In this document: piece by piece, positions 2,175 through 52,614 of the stretch
Numbering within the stretch: the stretch's first letter is position 1
Layout of the letters: every line of letters begins with the position of its first letter
Source of the DNA: Escherichia phage OSYSP
Length of the DNA: 64,000 bases
Reading direction: 5' to 3' (one strand)
Sequence record: MF402939
Position numbers and translations under genes: made by a program
The notes under the pieces: generated by a model
What the model saw: only the letters and a program-made list of their open reading frames with translations
The model's database searches: none
Told to the model about the DNA's origin: nothing

Positions 2175-3152
2175 ATGAGAATATTATTTAGTGCTGATCA
2201 TCATATCAAACTAGGACAGGATAAAGTTCCAAAGGAATGGCAGAAGCGTCGCTTCCTGATGCTAGGAGAACGGTTAAATGATATATTCCATAATCATAAC
2301 TGTGATCTTCATATTGCTGGTGGTGATATACTTGATGTTGCCGACCCGTCGTCAGAAGAAATAGAACTGCTTGAACAGTTCATGTCAAGACTTGACCATC
2401 CAGGCAAAATCTTTACTGGAAATCATGAAATGTTAACTAAAACCATTTCGTGTCTATATCATTATGCGGGGGTTATTAATAAAGTAACTAGTGGGAAGTG
2501 GGAAGTAATTACCAAACCATATCGTTCCCCTGAATTTGATATTGTTCCGTATGATGAAATCCATAAGTCTAAGTGGAAACCATCTGAATCAAAACTATGT
2601 TTCACGCATGTTCGTGGTGAAATCCCTCCACATGTAAAACCAGAAATTGATCTAACTAAGTACAACTGTTATGATACTGTAATTGCTGGCGATTTACATT
2701 CTTATACTAATAGCCAGACTATCGGATCTACTAGACTCCTCTACCCAGGGTCTCCATTAACTACATCGTTCCATAGAGAACGCACAAAAGGTACAAATGG
2801 TTGCTTTATCATTGATACCGACACATTAAAAGTAGAATGGATTGAACTAGGTGATTTACCACAACTGATCCGTAAAACAATCGGAGCAGGTGAAGAGATG
2901 GAACCTAGTGATTATGATCGTGTAGTCTACGAAGTTACTGGTGACGTTGTTCAATTAAAGTCTATCAAAGACTCTGATTTATTAGATAAGAAGATTAACC
3001 ATCGAGTTACTAAAGATGCTAAGTTAAATCTTGTTGATCTTGATATGTTGGGCGAACTTGAACTTTACTTCCGTGAAGTCGAGAAGCTATCTCAAGGCGA
3101 CATTGATAGAATCTTGGCTAGAGCTGCGAAATATGTCAAAGATTACAATTAA
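2175..3152 (+). CDS. SbcD/Mre11-like metallophosphoesterase nuclease
   Basis: Calcineurin-like motifs ADHH, GGDILD, GNHE, GDLHS; overlaps and precedes a Rad50-like ATPase. Confidence 0.85.
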   Translation: MRILFSADHHIKLGQDKVPKEWQKRRFLMLGERLNDIFHNHNCDLHIAGGDILDVADPSSEEIELLEQFMSRLDHPGKIFTGNHEMLTKTISCLYHYAGVINKVTSGKWEVITKPYRSPEFDIVPYDEIHKSKWKPSESKLCFTHVRGEIPPHVKPEIDLTKYNCYDTVIAGDLHSYTNSQTIGSTRLLYPGSPLTTSFHRERTKGTNGCFIIDTDTLKVEWIELGDLPQLIRKTIGAGEEMEPSDYDRVVYEVTGDVVQLKSIKDSDLLDKKINHRVTKDAKLNLVDLDMLGELELYFREVEKLSQGDIDRILARAAKYVKDYN

Positions 3153-4971
3153 GACACTAAAATTTAGTAACGTTATGTCTTACGGTAAGGACATCGTAAT
3201 TCATTTCGATAAGAATCCAGTTACTCAACTAATCGGTGGCAATGGGCTAGGGAAATCTACTATCGCCACGGTTATAGAAGAGCTGTTCTATAATAAGAAC
3301 TCACGTGGTATTAAGAAAGATGCTCTGTTCTCTTGGTCTTCTCCGAAAAAAGAGTATGATATGCACGCTTACTTCTCAAAAGATGAAGATGAGTATGAAT
3401 TGCATAAAGTAGTTAAATCAACTGCTAAGGTTACACTCATTAAGAATGGAGAAGATATTAGTGGGCATACGGCAACCCAAACATATAAGATGATTGAAGA
3501 AATTATGGGGGGTGACTTTCAAACATTCACCAAACTGATTTATCAATCAGTGGGTTCTAATCTAGACTTCCTAAAAGCAACAGATGCAACACGTAAGGCT
3601 TTTCTTGTTAACTTGTTCAATCAAGAGCAATACAAAGAAATGTCAGAAACTATTAAGGCTGACCGTAAAGAAATAGCAAATACCTTAAATAATTTGCAGG
3701 GCCAGATGGCTGTAATTACGAAAATCCTTAATGGAAAAAATAATCTAGGAACTTTGCAGGAACCTGTAGAGGTGCCGGAGTTTGATGAAGAGCCATTAGC
3801 ACAAGAACTTACTGAATCGAAAATTAAGGCGGCATTAGCCAAGTCTCAAGAGGCTAATATTACTAAGTTGCGTAATTTGGACAAAGCTGTACAAGTTGCC
3901 GAACAATCTTTCGAACCTTTCAAAAATTTGCCCGCGCCCACCGACCAAAGTGAAGAGATCTCGAGTGTTACGCGTGACCTAACGATTGTGACCTCACGTG
4001 CGAGCGAAGTTAAGAAACGTTATCAGAAGTTCAAGCAAGAGGCTTCAAATACTGAATGCCCTACTTGCGGTACTCATCTGGATACAACTGCTGCCCAAAA
4101 AGCAATGGATATGGCTAGAACAGAATATGATCCTCTGTTCAAAGAGAAGCAATCTCTTGAAGCTAAGCTAGAACAGTTGAAGAAAGAACAACTTGAGTAC
4201 GTTGCGTATACTAGAGCAAAGGATGCTTTGGATAAAGCGGTGGTAGCTAGAGACGAGTTCAAAAATTCAATGAGTGATGCTTCTTTTGAAGAACTCAATG
4301 TGCAAATCCTACAGGTGCAAATCCGACAATTAGAACAGGAAATCGCTGATGGCCGCTCTAAGGTTGCAATTGCCAAAGAGCATAATGCAAATGTCGAATT
4401 AGCCAACGCAAAATATAAAGCGAAACTAGAACAGATTGAGAAAGCTGAAGCAGAAATGTCTGAGATTACTTCCAAACTTGATGGAGTAGCCGAAGCTGTA
4501 GCTGATCTTGATATTCTAATTGCTGCTTTGAAAAATCTGGTGGGATATAAACTAGAGCATAGTGTGAAAGTATTCGAAGAATTAATTAATAAATACCTTT
4601 CTATTATGACTGGAGGTAAATTCGCACTTGGATTTGAACTTGATGAAACGAAGTTACAAGTAGTAATCTTCAATGATGGAAATCGTACCAGTATGGAGAA
4701 CTGCTCTACTGGTCAGCAAAGTAGAATTAATCTAGCAACCCTGTTAGCTATTCGTATGCTGTTAACATCTATTAGTAAAGTTAATATTAATCTTCTATTC
4801 CTTGATGAAGTAATTAGCTTTATTGATACGAAAGGACTTGATACTCTCGTTGAACTATTAAATGAGGAAGAAAGTCTAAATTCTATCATTGTTTCTCATG
4901 GGCATACGCATCCATTAGCTCATAAGATTACTGTCAAAAAAGATGCAGAAGGATTTTCCTACTTAGAATAA
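3133..4971 (+). CDS. SbcC/Rad50-like ATPase with coiled coil and zinc hook
   Basis: Start taken at MSKITIK (ATG 3133) rather than the track ATG at 3031; Walker A GGNGLGKST, CPTC hook motif in a long coiled-coil region, signature-like STGQQS, Walker B LLFLDEV. Confidence 0.85.
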   Translation: MSKITIKTLKFSNVMSYGKDIVIHFDKNPVTQLIGGNGLGKSTIATVIEELFYNKNSRGIKKDALFSWSSPKKEYDMHAYFSKDEDEYELHKVVKSTAKVTLIKNGEDISGHTATQTYKMIEEIMGGDFQTFTKLIYQSVGSNLDFLKATDATRKAFLVNLFNQEQYKEMSETIKADRKEIANTLNNLQGQMAVITKILNGKNNLGTLQEPVEVPEFDEEPLAQELTESKIKAALAKSQEANITKLRNLDKAVQVAEQSFEPFKNLPAPTDQSEEISSVTRDLTIVTSRASEVKKRYQKFKQEASNTECPTCGTHLDTTAAQKAMDMARTEYDPLFKEKQSLEAKLEQLKKEQLEYVAYTRAKDALDKAVVARDEFKNSMSDASFEELNVQILQVQIRQLEQEIADGRSKVAIAKEHNANVELANAKYKAKLEQIEKAEAEMSEITSKLDGVAEAVADLDILIAALKNLVGYKLEHSVKVFEELINKYLSIMTGGKFALGFELDETKLQVVIFNDGNRTSMENCSTGQQSRINLATLLAIRMLLTSISKVNINLLFLDEVISFIDTKGLDTLVELLNEEESLNSIIVSHGHTHPLAHKITVKKDAEGFSYLE

Positions 4972-32742: not shown

Positions 32743-33009
32743 ATGAAAAAGTTTGTGATTGCACTAGTTGCCGCAGTTATGTTGTCTGGTTGTGCACCTG
32801 CCCCCAAACCATTTTGTACGGGATTTGTAAAATCTTTTGGCGGTGCGGGAGAGGAGCATTACGGCCTCAAGGTTCAAAAAGTTCGTATTAAGGGAGATCG
32901 CTTTCCAGTAGTACAGCTCCGTACTAAGTTTGGGTGGTGGGATCTCAGTCAGTTTGACCTTAAATACGGTGATTGTAAATTTAAACTAGAGCAATCTAAC
33001 TACCTGTAA
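32743..33009 (+). CDS. llp: Lytic-conversion lipoprotein Llp-like (receptor-blocking, superinfection exclusion)
   Basis: Signal peptide plus lipobox LSGC; 88 aa; divergent neighbour of the receptor-binding protein gene. Confidence 0.75.
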   Translation: MKKFVIALVAAVMLSGCAPAPKPFCTGFVKSFGGAGEEHYGLKVQKVRIKGDRFPVVQLRTKFGWWDLSQFDLKYGDCKFKLEQSNYL

Positions 33010-33122
33010 TTAGTATAAAGCAAAAAGACATCCAAGTAAACTAAATTTTTTATTTCTTGGACGGTATACTGGCAGAAACCACTATATAAGAAAAGTAGAA
33101 GTCCTTCTAGGAAGTCGCAAGC

Positions 33123-33314
33123 ATGGTTGGTTATGCACAAACTATAAAATATTTTAAATACCACACTTATAGGAGCATGAAAGATATGTCAAACAAAAGA
33201 AAGAGTAGGCGCGGAGAAGTGTACGATAGTTGGATTAATAGTTTTGGATTCGGAACTATCCTATTCTTTATTTTCGTAGGTTTTTGGTTAGCAGCTATGG
33301 CGGGGTGGATTTAA
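33123..33314 (+). CDS. Small membrane protein (63 aa)
   Basis: C-terminal hydrophobic helix ILFFIFVGFWLAAMAGWI; AGGAAG RBS; first gene of a four-gene overlapping operon. Confidence 0.5.
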   Translation: MVGYAQTIKYFKYHTYRSMKDMSNKRKSRRGEVYDSWINSFGFGTILFFIFVGFWLAAMAGWI

Positions 33315-33421
33315 TGGAATGGGTAATTATTGCGTTGCTAGGGATTGTGATTATTGGGCAATGTATTTTAGATAATCACTTAGCTAGAATTGAAACTTTA
33401 CTAACGGAGAAACGTAAATGA
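33314..33421 (+). CDS. Small membrane protein (35 aa)
   Basis: ATG overlaps previous stop (TAATG); hydrophobic N-terminus WVIIALLGIVIIG; not in the ORF track because under 60 aa. Confidence 0.4.
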   Translation: MEWVIIALLGIVIIGQCILDNHLARIETLLTEKRK

Positions 33422-33612
33422 TGGAAGTAGTAGCTACACTAATAGTAATACTAGTCTGGGCAACTTTCATTGTTTCTTATAACGCGTATGTTCGCCTAAA
33501 AACTCTAGAGGCCCAGGTAAAGCAGCAACAATTTGCACTAGAAAAATTAGTAGAGCTTCAACGCTGTGATAGTACCCGTATTCTGCAAATTGAGAGGGAA
33601 TTAGATGTTTAG
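33418..33612 (+). CDS. Small membrane protein (64 aa)
   Basis: ATG overlaps previous stop (ATGA); N-terminal TM helix followed by coiled-coil segment. Confidence 0.5.
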   Translation: MMEVVATLIVILVWATFIVSYNAYVRLKTLEAQVKQQQFALEKLVELQRCDSTRILQIERELDV

Positions 33613-33850
33613 TATTATAATTGCTTTTATTATCGGGATACTCACGGGAGTTTTCGGAATGACTGCGGCAATCAACAAGCATCGTAAATATATTGCGGAA
33701 GTATCGCGGGAGATTGCGGAAAGGGAGCGGAAGTTTGATGAGAAACGTGCGGAGTTCGAACGAGAGTGGTCGGACGGTTCTCGGGCGTCGCGGAAGAGAT
33801 TCCGTGAGTTCAGACCAGAATACAGGTTTGATGACCCTTCTATGCGCTAA
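33605..33850 (+). CDS. Small membrane protein with charged C-terminal tail (81 aa)
   Basis: GAGAGGG RBS; N-terminal TM helix IIIAFIIGILTGVFGM; Arg/Glu-rich C-terminus. Confidence 0.5.
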   Translation: MFSIIIAFIIGILTGVFGMTAAINKHRKYIAEVSREIAERERKFDEKRAEFEREWSDGSRASRKRFREFRPEYRFDDPSMR

Positions 33851-34002
33851 TTTGACTTTTGCCAATTTCTTTGGATTACGTACGCGTGGGTGTGTCCAGT
33901 GGCCCCCCAGATGAGAATGAGTCTCATTACCGCCTGGTACTTAGCAGGCTAATAGTCCCGGCATGTTATCATTACACACCGGGACTATTTCAACTTTAAT
34001 TA

Positions 34003-34737
34003 CTACGCAACTTTTAATTTCTCAATATATTGTTGCGGGCTGCAACTATATTCTGCGCGTTCTTCTTCGGTCATACCTTCCCAACATAATTGCAGGCGGT
34101 CGGCTAGGAACTGATAATCATTATCATCCTCAAGAGATTCATCGATAAAGGTTTCACCTATCAATGTAACCCCAATCGATAGAATATCGTTAACGGCTTG
34201 TGCGTCCAGCGTTTTAAATCCGTATGATGCCGCCGCTGATAGCACGCCTTTATGATCATCAATCATCGTGAAATCAGCGTTCGGATATAATTGTTTAAAT
34301 AACTCAAAGTAATGGCTTTTATAAATAGCGTCTTTGCTGTGGTATATTTCGCTAACTTTATCAGCCTCAAAATATTTGTGTAGTGTATCGCGGGAAAATA
34401 CACGGATATTACTATCCCCACGCCCTCGCAATCCTTGTTTACGCAAATAATAATAATCCGACTTGCTCATCAGTCGAGCGGTGCAAATAATGTTTAATGT
34501 ATTTGCGTCATTCATGCACTGGCGCATATATGTAACAAGGGGCAATAAAGTATCTTGCATTATTAAATCATGTTTGCAGGCTTCATTTTTATACTTATTT
34601 AAATCTAAATTGCCCTCGCTATCAAAGCAAGGCGCTACACGATGGAAAGAATTAATGATAGTGCCGTCCAGATCCCAAATCATGACGCGGGAAATATGCG
34701 GGAAATTACGGGTAATATTCATTTTAACTTGATTCAT
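34003..34737 (-). CDS. dmp: HAD-family 5'-deoxynucleotidase (T5 Dmp-like)
   Basis: HAD motif I IWDLDGTI near N-terminus; start chosen at MNQVK (GGAGAA RBS 9 nt upstream) giving 244 aa; the track ORF extends to 34779. Confidence 0.65.
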   Translation of the reverse strand: MNQVKMNITRNFPHISRVMIWDLDGTIINSFHRVAPCFDSEGNLDLNKYKNEACKHDLIMQDTLLPLVTYMRQCMNDANTLNIICTARLMSKSDYYYLRKQGLRGRGDSNIRVFSRDTLHKYFEADKVSEIYHSKDAIYKSHYFELFKQLYPNADFTMIDDHKGVLSAAASYGFKTLDAQAVNDILSIGVTLIGETFIDESLEDDNDYQFLADRLQLCWEGMTEEERAEYSCSPQQYIEKLKVA

Positions 34738-34817
34738 TTTGTTACGTTCTCCATTAAAGGGATTTAGTTTATCCAGCATTGCCCGCTATTTATCAGCGGG
34801 CAATAATAAATCAACTA

Positions 34818-35561: not shown

Positions 35562-37226
35562 TTACGCGAAAAATTTACCGTTTTTAAAGTCGATCAAAGT
35601 GCGCTGACCGTTTGCATAGGTAATAACATGCGTTTGCGTCCAGCTTGACGCGCCAACGTTGTAACCCATGTCCAGACTACCAGCTACGCCAGCGGTATAT
35701 ACCCCGCCGTAAATGCTTGCCGTATGAGTATGCCCCGTGTTTAATTTGCCCAATTTCTTAAACTGTTTAGGATTGCCACGGCTGCCGTTAATGCCATTGT
35801 GACCGTGTACGCCGCACTCGATGCCTGCAATTTTAAATGATTGGTCAGTTGTTAGGAAAATGGCGTTAAATTCACAACCTGCAACCTTACGCAGCGCATA
35901 ATCAAGCACGTTGAAAGTATCGTCATGATCACCGATTGCCGCGTAAATTGCAGCATTTAGGCGGTGATATAGTTCCGCGTTTGCGGGATCGTCTTTAATG
36001 TTAGCATTACGATCATCAAGCCAACGGGATAGCGCTAAATCGTGGTTTGATTCCACGATGATTGTTTGAGAAAAATCGCGCTCCATTGACTCCAGCACGC
36101 GCCCCGTATCGATGAGATCATCCAGAACCTTATCACGTCCGGCGGCGTATTGTTTTGCTAGGAATACACCCGAAGCGCGGTTGTGATGGTTGCGGGATGT
36201 AAAATCATGCACGTCATGAATAAACTGATATTTAGGCTTGAGAATATCAAGCAAGCTATTTTCGCCAGCCCATGACGCAACGGCGCAATCGTCATCTAAT
36301 TTTTCGGCGTGAATATCGCCATATTGCAAGCCTAAAACATGCCCCGATGTTTCATAACATCCGGCGGGAGTGGCGCAAATATTCAAATCGTAAAACACGC
36401 CGCTTTCGTCCATCGTTTCAAGCTGGCGAACAAAAAATTCTCCGTCTTCGTCAAACTCAACAACAAGCGCACCGAAATTATGCAGCGCCTCGGCCTTTTG
36501 TCCTGCTTTCTGCTGGATGTAATTTTTTAGGGTTGCCGTTCCAGTTGAATACATACGACGCACTACTTCACCTTTTAAAGCTGGCACGCTTTCGGCGGTA
36601 ATTTTAGCGTGACCAATTGCCAGACCTTCCAGATTAAGCGCCGTTGCAGTTTCAGCGAATCCAGAAAGCGGATAATCTGCGGTTGGCAAAACGTTAATTT
36701 CAGCCATGAAAGCAAAACGGCGGTTATTTAAAAACACGTTTTTATTGCAGATATATTTGTCAAATGCGGAATCATATTTTATTCCTTCTGCACCCTCGCC
36801 ATTTTGAAAACCGTTTTTGTTATAAATAAACTTGCTAACCAGCAAATCAGCGCCGATATATTTAGCAAATTGCTCCAGTGAGGCTAAAAAGTTTTTATGC
36901 GGGAAAGTATTATTCTGAATCGACGTAATAATAAAGCGTTTACCCTGCTTTACTTCCCATTGCTCAACCGTGCTAGAAACAATCCCCGCCGCTTCTGGAC
37001 GCTCATCGTTTTTAATGGCTTTTGCTACTTTCGCCGCTTTCGGTTTAGCTGGTTTATTTGCTTCCAACCAGTCGCAGATAGCGGTCGAGTGTTTTGTTGT
37101 ATCGTAGACCGCTTTTGATATATCGTCGCAGACCTCCAGTTTAGTAGCGCGCAGACGTTTACCATAGAAATTAAAGTCAGCGGCCATTTTCAGGATAACG
37201 GTTTGTTTTTCTGCGGAAATAATCAT
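35562..37226 (-). CDS. A1: A1-like pre-early protein with metallophosphoesterase motifs
   Basis: 554 aa (T5 A1 about 556); calcineurin-like motifs GDIH, HDVHD, ESNHD, GHTH; sits beside an A2-like gene. Confidence 0.75.
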   Translation of the reverse strand: MIISAEKQTVILKMAADFNFYGKRLRATKLEVCDDISKAVYDTTKHSTAICDWLEANKPAKPKAAKVAKAIKNDERPEAAGIVSSTVEQWEVKQGKRFIITSIQNNTFPHKNFLASLEQFAKYIGADLLVSKFIYNKNGFQNGEGAEGIKYDSAFDKYICNKNVFLNNRRFAFMAEINVLPTADYPLSGFAETATALNLEGLAIGHAKITAESVPALKGEVVRRMYSTGTATLKNYIQQKAGQKAEALHNFGALVVEFDEDGEFFVRQLETMDESGVFYDLNICATPAGCYETSGHVLGLQYGDIHAEKLDDDCAVASWAGENSLLDILKPKYQFIHDVHDFTSRNHHNRASGVFLAKQYAAGRDKVLDDLIDTGRVLESMERDFSQTIIVESNHDLALSRWLDDRNANIKDDPANAELYHRLNAAIYAAIGDHDDTFNVLDYALRKVAGCEFNAIFLTTDQSFKIAGIECGVHGHNGINGSRGNPKQFKKLGKLNTGHTHTASIYGGVYTAGVAGSLDMGYNVGASSWTQTHVITYANGQRTLIDFKNGKFFA

Positions 37227-37322
37227 ATTAATAAAACTCCATTAAAGGGATTAAAAACGTTTGTTATTGGCAAATATTGCCAAATATAACGCCTTGAATA
37301 ATAGGCGTTATAATTTGCAACA

Positions 37323-37520
37323 TTAATTTAAAGGCATAAGGCTAGAACTAACACCACAAGCAACGGCGGCAATAAAACAAATCAGACCTAAACGCTTTGC
37401 CAATTTAGACTTACGTTTAAAATAATATGAGTCTAAATCATTTTGAAAATAAGCGAATAATAACGAGGCCGCCATAATAAATAAGCCTAGAATGAGGGAT
37501 TCAGTAGGGTAAAAGATCAT
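37323..37520 (-). CDS. Small membrane protein (65 aa)
   Basis: GGAG RBS; two hydrophobic helices. Confidence 0.45.
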   Translation of the reverse strand: MIFYPTESLILGLFIMAASLLFAYFQNDLDSYYFKRKSKLAKRLGLICFIAAVACGVSSSLMPLN

Positions 37521-37576
37521 TTTAAAACTCCAGTCAAAGGGAAATTATAGTGGGGAATATTCCCCACTAATTAAAT

Positions 37577-37984
37577 TTATTCGCCTGCGGCTTGTTTTAC
37601 TTCATCGGCAACGCCTAACAGTTGCGCCACGGCGTCCAGTGTTTCAAGTTTTGCACTTTCCAGACTTGCCAGATCATCGGCGTCTTTGATAATGCCGGAA
37701 TCAATAGCATGTTTAGCGATAACGCGTACATAGTGAGCTTTGCGGATTGAGCTACCGCCGCCAACTTTGCGCGGCTTATCGCTTTTCTGATACGCTTTCG
37801 CGCTGGTCAATTTTGACCGAACGGATACGGGAGAAGCCGCGCCCACTGCTTTTGCAATCTCTTTTAAACCGTAGCTATTTGCGAAATCTAAACCGTTTTC
37901 ATTGATTAACTGCTGATACATGGAAACGGCTTTTTGGGTGTTTTCTTCATTCCAAGCAAATTTTGCGGTTTTAACGTTAGTCAT
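37577..37984 (-). CDS. A2: A2-like pre-early DNA-binding protein
   Basis: 135 aa; GGAG RBS; basic central region; immediately upstream of the A1-like gene. Confidence 0.6.
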   Translation of the reverse strand: MTNVKTAKFAWNEENTQKAVSMYQQLINENGLDFANSYGLKEIAKAVGAASPVSVRSKLTSAKAYQKSDKPRKVGGGSSIRKAHYVRVIAKHAIDSGIIKDADDLASLESAKLETLDAVAQLLGVADEVKQAAGE

Positions 37985-38395: not shown

Positions 38396-39223
38396 TAAGC
38401 AACAATCCGCTCACCGCTATAATCAATTTAAAGAACTCCATGCAGGCCGCTATATCCCAGTTAGGGGGCGGGACACATTATGGTAAGTGCCGACCGTCAG
38501 ATTTTATCAAGTTATCGCTCTTATCGAACTGAGTACATCTTAAAGCCTATCGGCTAGGTTGTCAAACAATTTTTTGCAGTTTTTTATAATTCTCTTTCAA
38601 GTCAATCATAATATTTCGCCAGATCATTTCTAAACCTTGCTGGCGGCCTTTCTTGTACTGCGTGAATCGGTATTTTACCGATCTTTGCGCTACTGTCAAC
38701 AAATTTTTTGTTTTGCTGTCCAGTGCCTTGCTAGGTTTACCAGTGATCAATAAAGTTTGTTTCATATCTGCGATTCCTTATAATGTATAAGTTTACCGCC
38801 GATAGACTTTAAGATGTACCCAATTTTTAAAGAGCGCGGCGGTAAACTTCCCGCCGTGTAGTTCGTCATTGCCGCCCTACGAGATAAATAATAAGGGATT
38901 CACAAAAATGGCGCAACCTTATTTTTGTAAAGAAACGTAAAGACAAATGCCACCGGACACCGTGCGGCGACCTGGGCGCGACGCACTAAAATTAAAAGAA
39001 ACGGGCGCGCGAATACCACAAAACATAGCAGATAGGCAAGTAATTTTTTCATTTATATTTGCTTTGCCCTACTTGACAAAATCTAAAAAACTCGTGGTAG
39101 CGATAAACGAGGGTAGGCAATGCAATGGCATGGCTAAAAACTTCATCGCGTTCTAGGGCGTTTTAGGCGCATTCTAGCCTTGTTGATAACTTATCCCCAG
39201 AAGCAAAAATGAAATTTTCCTAG

Positions 39224-50861: not shown

Positions 50862-51455
50862 TTAGACATTTATATCGCCACGCAATACAGCAGCTACGTC
50901 TTCTCCTATTTGTAATACCTCGCCGGTAGTACAATTAACCACTCTATCGTAACTAGTAAACTTACCAGACACAATATCCTCTAGTGGAATTGGAGTTCTA
51001 CTCATTTCAAATGAGACATTAATATAACGTGGATCACGTAAAGAAGTAGTATGTACATGTCCGTGAATATTTAGTTTGCCACGAAGTTCATTAGGGTGCA
51101 AAGGGCAGTGAGATAGCCAAAACTTTTTGCCACCTCCAGTCTGTTTGCCTAGAGCTTGAATATCGTCATAAACTTCCGCTAAGTCCCTAATACTCAGTCC
51201 TTGACGCTCCGCATCATGATTACCCATAATGAGTTGATTAGGGACATTGTGGATAACCGACTTTAATTTGGCCAGACCTTCACGACCTACTGCAATATCT
51301 CCTAGCAAAATAAGTTTTGTTCGTTTACCAATATGCTTGGATAAAGTATTTAGAATATACTCATCGTGCTCTTTCATGTTCTTAAACCACGGACGGAAAC
51401 GTAGTGCTCCAGGGTGGTCTAAGTGCAAGTCTGACCAGAATTTAACCTTCATCAC
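50862..51455 (-). CDS. Calcineurin-like metallophosphoesterase
   Basis: Motifs SDLHLD, GDIAVGREG, GNHD, GHVH. Confidence 0.65.
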   Translation of the reverse strand: MMKVKFWSDLHLDHPGALRFRPWFKNMKEHDEYILNTLSKHIGKRTKLILLGDIAVGREGLAKLKSVIHNVPNQLIMGNHDAERQGLSIRDLAEVYDDIQALGKQTGGGKKFWLSHCPLHPNELRGKLNIHGHVHTTSLRDPRYINVSFEMSRTPIPLEDIVSGKFTSYDRVVNCTTGEVLQIGEDVAAVLRGDINV

Positions 51456-51739
51456 TTACTCCTTTTTTGTATTAAATTATCAATCCAGGTAGTTAATACT
51501 CTAGTTTTAAACTCCTCGGGAGTCTCTCCTTCCTTAAGGTCTACCTCATTAAGGTAGGTAGTAAGCCTTGTTTCTATCTCTATTTCAGCAGGAGAATTAA
51601 AACAAAAATTGACTGCTATTCCAGAATATATTACTCCGGTATCTCCTTTGACGAAAGCATTAACTAATGCTCTCCAACGAAGGGCATCAATACGCATTGC
51701 TCGTAATTCTTCTTGTACTTCTTTCATTCTATCATTCAT
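51452..51739 (-). CDS. Hypothetical early protein (95 aa)
   Basis: ATGA overlap with the downstream gene. Confidence 0.45.
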   Translation of the reverse strand: MNDRMKEVQEELRAMRIDALRWRALVNAFVKGDTGVIYSGIAVNFCFNSPAEIEIETRLTTYLNEVDLKEGETPEEFKTRVLTTWIDNLIQKRSK

Positions 51740-52614
51740 TAAAGAATCCTCTGTACACCACAGCTATCTTCTCGAAGCGTGGTAAATGTTGTGATTTTCC
51801 CAGTTTCATCATTAACTTGCGCAACCGTCAACTGCCCGTTGAAAACACCGCCAGTATCAAGATAAACACGGTTCTGGTATAAAATCGGGTAAGGAACCCC
51901 AGTGTGTCCGTGGAACACAAAGTCTATCCCTTTAACTTCGGGCACTTCTACCATGTATTTTTCTTTAAATCCTGCATAACGCTGGAAATACGGATGTTCC
52001 TCACCGTTTTTGGACAAGTATAAACCTATTTCTTGGATTACATCTCGATCCCATAAGTATGGCTCAACATGGTATCCAGGATGGTCATGTGGGTCTTCCT
52101 TAGCTGCTTCTACTTGTGCAATAAGGCTATCCCATACTGGGGTTTCTACTTCGTTACCGCAGTCTTTGTATGTAAAAGGTACACCACCATGAACAACACC
52201 AAACTTCTTACCACGATGTCTAACAGTTAGGAATACTGGCATTTTTTCAGCCATATCTTCGGCAATATTTTTAATGGTGTCTGCATCTAGTTCATTCATG
52301 GCCCACATACCACCATTATACATCCAATTAGCCCAATCTCCAACAATCATAAATTGATCATGATTACCACGGACACTGATAAAACGTGGATTATATAGGA
52401 ATTTGGCTAAAACTTGTAAATTTTGTGTGCCTCGGTCAATTAAGTCACCAACACATACTACACAATCTTTTTTGCTATTATATCCAGCTAATTTCAGCGC
52501 ATCTTCTAGCAAATCGTTGCATCCATGAATATCCCCAACGAAAAACAAGTTGGCCTCATCCGGCACTACTATTGTTTTATGCACATTAAATTCTTTTTTC
52601 ATAATTATTCCCAA
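51739..52614 (-). CDS. Ser/Thr protein phosphatase-like metallophosphoesterase
   Basis: Motifs GDIHGC, GDLIDRG, GNHD, HGG, GH arranged as in PPP-family phosphatases. Confidence 0.7.
   Translation of the reverse strand: MGIIMKKEFNVHKTIVVPDEANLFFVGDIHGCNDLLEDALKLAGYNSKKDCVVCVGDLIDRGTQNLQVLAKFLYNPRFISVRGNHDQFMIVGDWANWMYNGGMWAMNELDADTIKNIAEDMAEKMPVFLTVRHRGKKFGVVHGGVPFTYKDCGNEVETPVWDSLIAQVEAAKEDPHDHPGYHVEPYLWDRDVIQEIGLYLSKNGEEHPYFQRYAGFKEKYMVEVPEVKGIDFVFHGHTGVPYPILYQNRVYLDTGGVFNGQLTVAQVNDETGKITTFTTLREDSCGVQRIL

Follow-up and report, generated by a model that had tools for sequence, protein, structure and literature searches.

Background

Which enzyme destroys the chromosome of a cell infected by a T5-like phage? 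T5 needs no more than about 4 min to destroy half of the E. coli chromosome and, to our knowledge, the nuclease behind this destruction went unidentified for fifty years. The question is raised here by positions 35562-37984 of a 64,000-nucleotide (nt) window from Escherichia phage OSYSP (record MF402939; the window is the whole stretch of DNA that was analysed, and all coordinates refer to it unless another record is named), which run exactly from the stop codon of the gene A1 to the start of the gene A2. A1 (35562..37226, minus strand, stop codon included, as given in the list of open reading frames, ORFs) encodes a protein of 554 amino acids (aa) and is the ortholog of T5 A1 (T5.004, YP_006832, 'DNA transfer protein'), with which it shares 95% aa identity over 554/556 aa, that is, over its full length. 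The two are the same protein in sister phages, separated by 26 substitutions and a 2-residue deletion; none of these changes lies within the motifs discussed below, and all motif residues are identical. The protein also belongs to PHROG 1745 (E = 4e-244, residues 8-553 covered).

We propose that the C-terminal half of A1 is a highly divergent two-metal phosphoesterase, so that A1 is most likely itself the destroyer of the host chromosome. The metallophosphoesterase assignment is already known from the T5 literature, where a 2026 preprint terms A1 a "predicted metallo-phosphatase" (bioRxiv 10.64898/2026.04.02.716235), and our analysis is a confirmation of it, not a discovery. Placing A1 in a two-metal superfamily makes the proposed catalysis concrete and names the residues to be mutated, a step that the T5 field has already taken. 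Our small additions are that the A1 family is invisible to Pfam, that it carries an equally conserved middle domain, and that the catalytic residues are kept in many phages other than those of the T5 type.

A divergent metallophosphoesterase domain in A1

A preliminary description of this DNA, made from the letters alone, had reported a complete set of metallophosphoesterase motifs in the C-terminal half of the 554-aa protein, namely GDIH, HDVHD, ESNHD and GHTH. All four are located there, encoded on the minus strand. GDIH is motif I (residues 303-306; 36309..36320), in which D304 and H306 are the predicted ligands of the first metal. HDVHD is motif II (337-341; 36204..36218), with D338 as the predicted bridging ligand and a histidine in place of the usual glycine. 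Motif III is SNHD (393-396; 36039..36050; ESNHD spans 392-396), with a serine for the usual glycine, N394 as a predicted metal ligand and H395 as the predicted catalytic histidine, and GHTH is motif V (498-501; 35724..35735), whose H499 and H501 are putative ligands. The list called complete omitted motif IV, HGH (474-476; 35799..35807), which supplies the motif IV histidine, and it included in HDVHD a residue, D341, that proved not to be conserved. The five motifs follow the canonical calcineurin-like order, with spacings of 34 (I-II), 56 (II-III), 80 (III-IV) and 25 (IV-V) residues. An ordered pattern of D.H, D..D, NH[DE], H and GH.H with superfamily-like spacing was recovered in 2 of 100,000 shuffles of A1, and among 50 long ORF segments of the window it occurs in one, A1 itself.

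To describe conservation we used two alignments, one of 40 A1-family sequences reaching down to 42% identity and a more distant one of 11 sequences that includes homologs from Caulobacter, Flavobacterium, Vibrio and Rhizobium phages at 28-33% identity. Invariant in the first are G303, D304, H306, H337, D338, D341, N346, H347, H348, S393, N394, H395, H474, G475, H499 and H501, three of which belong to RNHH (345-348), a conserved stretch that follows motif II. Invariance persists in the distant set at G303, D304, H306, H337, D338, H348, S393, N394, H395, H474, G475, G498 and H501. Hence six of the seven putative ligands (D304, H306, D338, N394, H474, H501), together with H395, are invariant down to 28% identity. 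The seventh, H499, is present in 10 of the 11 aligned sequences and is an aspartate in the protein of the Rhizobium phage, whose GDKH is a variant also seen in the SbcD-like protein D13 (GDLH) that OSYSP itself encodes. D341 is replaced by asparagine or histidine in the Flavobacterium and Vibrio homologs and, because it is not conserved, the functional residue of motif II is D338. H476 is nearly invariant in the A1 family; the homolog in question from Rhizobium phage RHph_Y2_17_1 (L008 2536-4398) has HGF for HGH in motif IV, besides GDKH for GHTH, and a longer N-terminal region.

The predicted structure places these motifs where a metallophosphoesterase would have them. AlphaFold models of full-length A1 (predicted local distance difference test, pLDDT, 88.3; predicted template modelling score, pTM, 0.81) and of residues 285-554 (pLDDT 84.3, pTM 0.84) agree in setting every motif directly after a beta-strand (DSSP strands 297-301, 333-337, 386-391, 469-473 and 495-497), and in all members of the metallophosphoesterase superfamily the motifs stand at the C-terminal ends of strands. 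A Foldseek search of BFVD, a collection of predicted viral structures, gave 13 matches to A1 at E <= 1e-3. Ranks 1-3 go to two clear relatives of A1, at 42% and 23% identity, and to an uncharacterised protein with just 14% identity whose alignment covers the middle and C-terminal domains; at ranks 4-13 (E from 9e-8 to 7e-5), eight of the ten are named metallophosphoesterases or metallophosphatases of the MPP, ApaH or LpxH type and two are unnamed. Rank 14 is a phosphoesterase (E = 1.4e-3), and proteins named 'DNA polymerase II small subunit' appear at about 2e-3. When the domain model was compared with the Protein Data Bank (PDB), the top 16 matches all belonged to the superfamily (MPPED2, Mre11, LpxH, PP1, PP2A and RDGC), and the full-length model matched YydB, purple acid phosphatases, MPPED2, POLD2 and GpdQ. 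Because of the motifs, their invariance, their strand-end positions and the fold matches, the C-terminal 260 residues of A1 are, as far as the models can tell, a genuine and very divergent member of the calcineurin-like metallophosphoesterase superfamily.

Compared with this superfamily (Pfam clan Calcineurin; PF00149 Metallophos, PF12850 Metallophos_2), A1 shares the series D-x-H, D, N-H-[DE], H and G-H-x-H and differs in having H-D for G-D in motif II and S-N-H-D for G-N-H-D in motif III. The A1 family has two further invariant features, in that motif II is followed by RNHH and motif IV by G-x-N-G-x-R-G, and the A1-family domain is always fused to a conserved N-terminal accessory domain of about 200 aa.

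From fold to function: A1 and the loss of host DNA

Host DNA is the most likely substrate of A1, and the strongest support for this comes from published work on T5. Mutants of T5 A1 are unable to degrade host DNA, and Annor et al. report that A1 alone, expressed ectopically, halves the DNA content of the cell in 40 min, with the chromosomal DNA band gone and rRNA spared (bioRxiv 10.64898/2026.04.02.716235). This loss was seen with A1 alone in two E. coli strains, F and DH5alpha, and the same preprint shows A1 to be both necessary and sufficient for the loss of host chromosomal DNA in vivo. The fold matches that Foldseek gave for Mre11 and for DNA polymerase II small-subunit proteins agree with Annor et al. 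The preliminary description took the motifs to be compatible with a nuclease that could itself degrade host DNA, and this view is supported by the invariance of the putative ligands, by the metallophosphoesterase fold matches and by the published sufficiency in vivo.

By analogy with the superfamily, D304 and H306 would bind the first metal, D338 would bridge both metals, N394, H474 and H499 would bind the second and H501 would complete the site. The two-metal centre is probably Mn2+ or Fe/Mn, and H395 may assist catalysis by stabilising the transition state, as in other superfamily members. A1 would then hydrolyse phosphodiester bonds of host DNA to 5'-deoxynucleoside monophosphates (5'-dNMPs), which Dmp, whose gene stands in the leftward pre-early string of A1, would dephosphorylate to nucleosides that are excreted. 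The roles of the residues, the identity of the metals, DNA as the direct substrate and the mode of cleavage, endo- or exonucleolytic, are all inferred.

The evidence against, and alternative explanations

Several observations weigh against this assignment. The Pfam Metallophos models (PF00149, PF12850) match neither A1 nor any of the 40 family members at E <= 1; three other metallophosphoesterases of the window, which served as a positive control, are matched by these models. An NCBIfam search of A1 gave no match, and searches of all PDB sequences with phmmer and with a 40-sequence family profile returned nothing relevant, neither Mre11 nor SbcD. An hhalign comparison of the A1 C-domain profile with a 31-sequence D13/SbcD profile yielded a probability of 0.5% (0.4% with relaxed settings). 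The PDB fold matches are weak (best E 1.3e-2, probability 0.80, TM-score 0.3-0.47), and none reaches E <= 1e-3. On the functional side, there is no report in the literature of nuclease activity from purified A1, and Annor et al. leave open that A1 activates a host nuclease (bioRxiv 10.64898/2026.04.02.716235). A1 has further properties that DNA hydrolysis does not obviously explain: it binds RNA polymerase, it is membrane-associated and second-step transfer depends on it. The escape of unmodified phage DNA from A1 is likewise unexplained. Two further outcomes of the searches are of a minor kind: hhalign of the A1 profile against the three canonical metallophosphoesterases of the window as single sequences gave short, meaningless matches only, and a PDB profile match to dehydroquinate dehydratase (E = 0.002) came down to a short 'SNHE..L..WL' alignment that we took as chance.

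If the failure of Pfam, NCBIfam, the PDB sequence searches and hhalign to find a relationship, and the lack of individual significance among the PDB fold matches, were taken at face value, the motifs would be a chance resemblance and the domain no metallophosphoesterase at all. Such a coincidence would have to account for an ordered pattern as rare as that found among the shuffles, for motif residues that are invariant and stand at strand ends, for BFVD matches to named metallophosphoesterases down to E = 9e-8 and for 16 top PDB matches from one superfamily; we regard it as effectively refuted. The Pfam failure on A1 is a limit of sequence detection, not evidence of another fold. It is also very improbable, if marginally less so, that the domain has the fold and is catalytically dead, a scaffold like VPS29 or the B subunits of eukaryotic polymerases, in a protein that works mainly as an RNA polymerase-binding transcription or DNA-transfer factor, through its N-terminal helix-turn-helix (HTH) and its membrane association. 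RNA polymerase does co-purify with A1, which shuts off pre-early transcription; according to the phiCbK and KASIA papers, homologs in replication modules act on RNA polymerase and not on DNA; and inactive superfamily members exist, with POLD2 among the fold matches of A1. However, inactive members have lost their metal ligands, whereas in A1 six of seven putative ligands and the catalytic histidine are invariant and H499 is kept in 10 of 11 sequences. Invariance of this kind across phages of Enterobacteria, Vibrio, Caulobacter, Rhizobium and Flavobacterium, at 28-33% identity, is a signature of selection on catalysis, and a scaffold does not account for the DNA loss that A1 causes on its own.

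The main rival, which we consider unlikely yet clearly more probable than the two just discussed, grants A1 an active metallophosphoesterase and gives it another substrate, such as a nucleotide second messenger, NAD+, a phosphoprotein or RNA ends, so that DNA would be lost indirectly through a host nuclease that is activated or de-repressed. The superfamily contains many enzymes that are not nucleases, and the fold matches of A1 are spread over PP1, PP2A, purple acid phosphatases, LpxH, MPPED2 and GpdQ no less than over Mre11; moreover, DNase activity of A1 in vitro is unreported in the literature, and the authors of the preprint themselves list activation of a host nuclease as an alternative (bioRxiv 10.64898/2026.04.02.716235). 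What tells against an indirect route is that A1 alone removes chromosomal DNA in both E. coli F and DH5alpha, and that unrelated phages, whose hosts differ greatly, have A1 homologs among their genes of replication and nucleotide metabolism; in such phages reliance on one host nuclease is unlikely. The presence of the dNMP-consuming Dmp in the same gene string of T5-like phages also speaks for direct hydrolysis of host DNA by A1, the reading that we prefer.

Relationship to Mre11/SbcD and to other phage nucleases

The label 'calcineurin/Mre11-type' given in the preliminary description stands at the level of the superfamily and falls short for Mre11, in view of the missing Pfam Metallophos match, the hhalign probability of 0.5% and the absence of an adjacent Rad50/SbcC gene. 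A1 and Mre11/SbcD have the same superfamily fold, and a metal-dependent DNA nuclease is the chemistry expected for A1. A comparison of the predicted structure with Mre11/SbcD had also been suggested; Mre11 structures (3av0, 3auz, 4tug, 5dny and 1ii7) are indeed among the PDB matches, with no preference for Mre11 over other members. Mre11 chains take ranks 2, 5, 10, 11 and 24 of the domain model, interleaved with MPPED2, LpxH, PP1 and PP2A at similarly weak scores, and so Mre11 is not ranked above phosphatases or LpxH. In contrast to an Mre11/SbcD pair, A1 shows no profile-level similarity to the D13/SbcD family, acts alone in vivo and has no Rad50/SbcC ATPase beside it, its neighbours being small proteins (the orthologs of T5.003 and T5.005). 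The sole SbcC-like gene of the window (3031-4971) lies beside D13, about 30 kb from A1. A1 is therefore a superfamily member and not demonstrably one of the Mre11/SbcD type.

The window holds three more metallophosphoesterases that Pfam does recognise: D13 (2175-3152, plus strand), a 197-aa protein (50862-51455, minus strand) and a Ser/Thr-phosphatase-like protein (51739-52614, minus strand). Counting A1, this part of the genome encodes four proteins of the metallophosphoesterase fold. The SbcD-like D13 adjoins the SbcC/Rad50-like ATPase D12 (3031-4971, plus strand), and the two ORFs overlap by about 120 nt.

With EndoII and EndoIV of T4 and gp3 and gp6 of T7, A1 shares the early breakdown of the host chromosome. 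Their folds are unrelated to that of A1, and the preprint notes that there is no sequence homology (bioRxiv 10.64898/2026.04.02.716235). T5 also excretes the breakdown products and does not recycle them.

Domain anatomy of A1

The phosphoesterase domain (residues 293-554; 35565..36350, minus strand), delimited by the five ordered motifs and the Foldseek matches and classed as a divergent calcineurin-like domain on these grounds, forms the end of A1; the extra domain is N-terminal to it, and no capping domain could be identified. The protein, all of it encoded on the minus strand, begins with a three-helix domain (residues 1-60; 37047..37226; helices 5-17, 26-41 and 47-56; pLDDT 82-91) that is probably a degenerate HTH. 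The equivalent region in homologs from other phages matches Pfam HTH_23, HTH_7 and CENP-B_N and, in agreement with this assignment, the phiCbK homolog has an HHpred match to 1g2h (PMC3556154). A linker rich in lysine, alanine and proline follows (residues 61-88; 36963..37046), which is predicted to be disordered (pLDDT 49-54 over residues 61-80) and varies in length within the family.

Between the linker and the phosphoesterase domain lies a conserved middle domain (residues 89-292; 36351..36962; pLDDT mostly >85), alpha/beta at first and then beta-rich. Its conservation equals that of the catalytic domain, with motifs like TSAQNNT, YNKNGFQN, NILPTA..PLSG and TTG.vT..NYIQ.KAGQKA, and at least 13 residues are invariant down to 28% identity: Q104, Y135, P181, T182, P186, T228, G229, T232, G242, H249, R267, G276 and D280. 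It matches no Pfam or NCBIfam family. We considered that it might be a degenerate duplicate of the phosphoesterase domain and rejected this at the sequence level (hhalign against the C-terminal half, probability 0.2%). The middle domain could be what selects host over phage DNA.

Distribution of A1-type genes among phages

The A1 family is far more widespread than the two-step injection mechanism to which A1 is usually tied. A tblastn search with a distant family member found A1-type genes in 1,132 phage records. T5-like enterobacterial phages apart, the hosts represented are Vibrio (368 records), Flavobacterium (68), Caulobacter (39), Rhizobium (29) and Cellulophaga, among others, and Pseudomonas phage pf16, Dinoroseobacter phage R5C and Sphingobium phage Lacusarx also have such a gene. 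On annotated genomes and metagenomic contigs alike, the homologs are surrounded by genes of replication and nucleotide metabolism, for example those for ribonucleotide reductase, topoisomerase II, dCMP deaminase, a MazG-like pyrophosphatase, NAMPT, a T7-like DNA polymerase, DnaB and PhoH. In both metagenomic contigs examined, only a few genes at most separate the A1 homolog from a gene for a ClpP protease. Homologs of about 45% identity are found on metagenomic phage contigs of 73-88 kb (L002 6270-7889, L003 10001-11602 and L004 1300-2901), with an N-terminal HTH that Pfam detects. A ClpP protease gene is adjacent or close to these three homologs, their surroundings include MazG-like, ribonucleotide reductase, topoisomerase II, dCMP deaminase, NAMPT and phosphoribosyl pyrophosphate (PRPP) synthetase genes, and no T5-type pre-early region is in view around them. 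A kinase gene near the Caulobacter phage homolog was considered as a relative of Dmp and showed only a weak HAD-motif match (E = 0.004), and we did not use it as evidence.

Homologs outside the T5-like phages were known before, in phiCbK, phiJL001 and KASIA, and the authors of those studies argued that they probably do not degrade DNA. The catalytic residues are invariant in just such homologs, which argues for catalysis as the conserved core of the family; this conservation outside T5 is a modest new point. We offer, as a possibility to which we give slightly less than even weight, that the A1-type proteins are a distinct, Pfam-invisible clade of metallophosphoesterases, present in more than 1,100 phage genomes of unrelated lineages and furnished with an obligatory and equally conserved N-terminal accessory domain of about 200 aa. 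Given catalytic residues that are invariant throughout, such a clade would have phosphodiester hydrolysis, probably in the destruction of host DNA, as its ancestral and general function, and the roles of A1 in T5 transfer and in transcription shut-off would be secondary. This proposal would cover the phages of Vibrio, Flavobacterium, Caulobacter, Rhizobium and Pseudomonas, including some that reportedly lack A2 or have the A1-type gene elsewhere than in the terminal repeat, and it contradicts the published inferences on the phiCbK and KASIA homologs.

Gene order and orthology of the A1 locus

The OSYSP window comes from a T5-like phage (Demerecviridae, Markadamsvirinae), and 35562-37984 is the block of A2, a 65-aa membrane protein and A1 within the pre-early, first-step-transfer region. 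The DNA of this block has 95% identity to Salmonella phage SPLA5b and Escherichia phage vB_Eco_mar004NP2 and 91.5% identity to T5. The matched part of T5 belongs to the left terminal repeat, the first-step-transfer DNA, and holds A1, A2 and the gene of the membrane protein T5.005. A megablast search with the A1 region found matches in 458 records of T5-like phages. The preliminary description had placed the A2-like gene and the 65-aa protein next to A1 on the same strand, in somewhat muddled wording, and its gene order was right: all three lie on the minus strand, the 65-aa gene and A2 upstream of A1, and a GGAG is located 10 nt 5' of the A1 ATG.

A2 (37577..37984, minus strand, 135 aa) is 99% identical to T5 A2 and belongs to PHROG 1725, 'DNA binding protein', in keeping with T5 A2, a DNA-binding protein that is required alongside A1 in second-step DNA transfer. 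The 65-aa protein (37323..37520, minus strand), between A2 and A1, is 100% identical to T5.005 and falls in PHROG 4820, 'membrane protein'; its two hydrophobic segments of 17 residues each (about residues 9-25 and 46-62) are of membrane-spanning length. T5.005 is reported as dispensable for T5 (bioRxiv 10.64898/2026.04.02.716235).

Downstream of A1 on the minus strand follow the orthologs of T5.003 and T5.002 and then dmp, the gene of the 5'-deoxynucleotidase (34003..34779, minus strand; PHROG 415), which belongs to the same leftward gene string and is collinear with T5.001. Its position matches that of the annotated 5'-deoxyribonucleotide monophosphatase of Salmonella phage SIA3lw, with the same gene order, and its product shows 47% identity to that of a gene neighbouring A1 in Vibrio phage D325. 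According to the literature, Dmp converts the dNMP products of DNA breakdown to nucleosides. The OSYSP dmp ORF measures 258 aa from its first ATG, against 244 aa annotated for T5 dmp, and the true start is probably an internal methionine (MNQVKMNI...).

Upstream of A2 lie the T5.007 ortholog, a DUF7177 protein, and then the hdi/T5.008 ortholog (38562-38765). Two sigma-70-like promoter matches on the minus strand stand upstream of the leftward string, TTGACA-16-TAAAAT (38699-38672, 11 of 12 positions) and TTGACA-17-TAAGAT (38565-38537). Both of these strong matches (38537..38699) overlap the hdi/T5.008 ortholog, from which the string runs through T5.007, A2, the 65-aa gene and A1 to dmp, and their positions correspond to the T5 promoters P-H22 and P-D/E20, which were defined experimentally. 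OSYSP and T5 have the same gene order, dmp-002-003-A1-005-A2-007, the same promoter region and the same placement in the terminal repeat. The locus is collinear both with T5 1-10 kb and with the left terminal repeat annotated in SIA3lw.

The boundary of the terminal repeat lies near 33.9 kb of the window, beside a receptor-blocking lipoprotein gene. Since the late/receptor region adjoins this boundary, the window reads directly into the pre-early region, as in assemblies with a single copy of the repeat. The lipoprotein gene itself (32743-33009, plus strand) encodes a signal peptide followed by a cysteine and matches the 'receptor-blocking protein' of relatives; together with several small membrane-protein ORFs it abuts the boundary (32743 to 34003).

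A perfect palindrome, TAGTGGGGA-ATAT-TCCCCACTA, occupies positions 37548-37569, within the 56 nt that separate the stop codon of A2 from the 65-aa gene. It could be an attenuator, a terminator, an RNA-processing site or a protein-binding site of the pre-early operon, and the record of phage BF23 has a terminator annotated inside the matched A1-A2 stretch. Public annotation of this region is inconsistent: Salmonella phage SIA3lw (PP094244.1) labels the 65-aa membrane protein 'A1 protein' (L009 7763-7960) and the T5.007 ortholog 'baseplate wedge protein' (L009 8521-8772), and the PHROG label for Dmp is 'polynucleotide kinase'.

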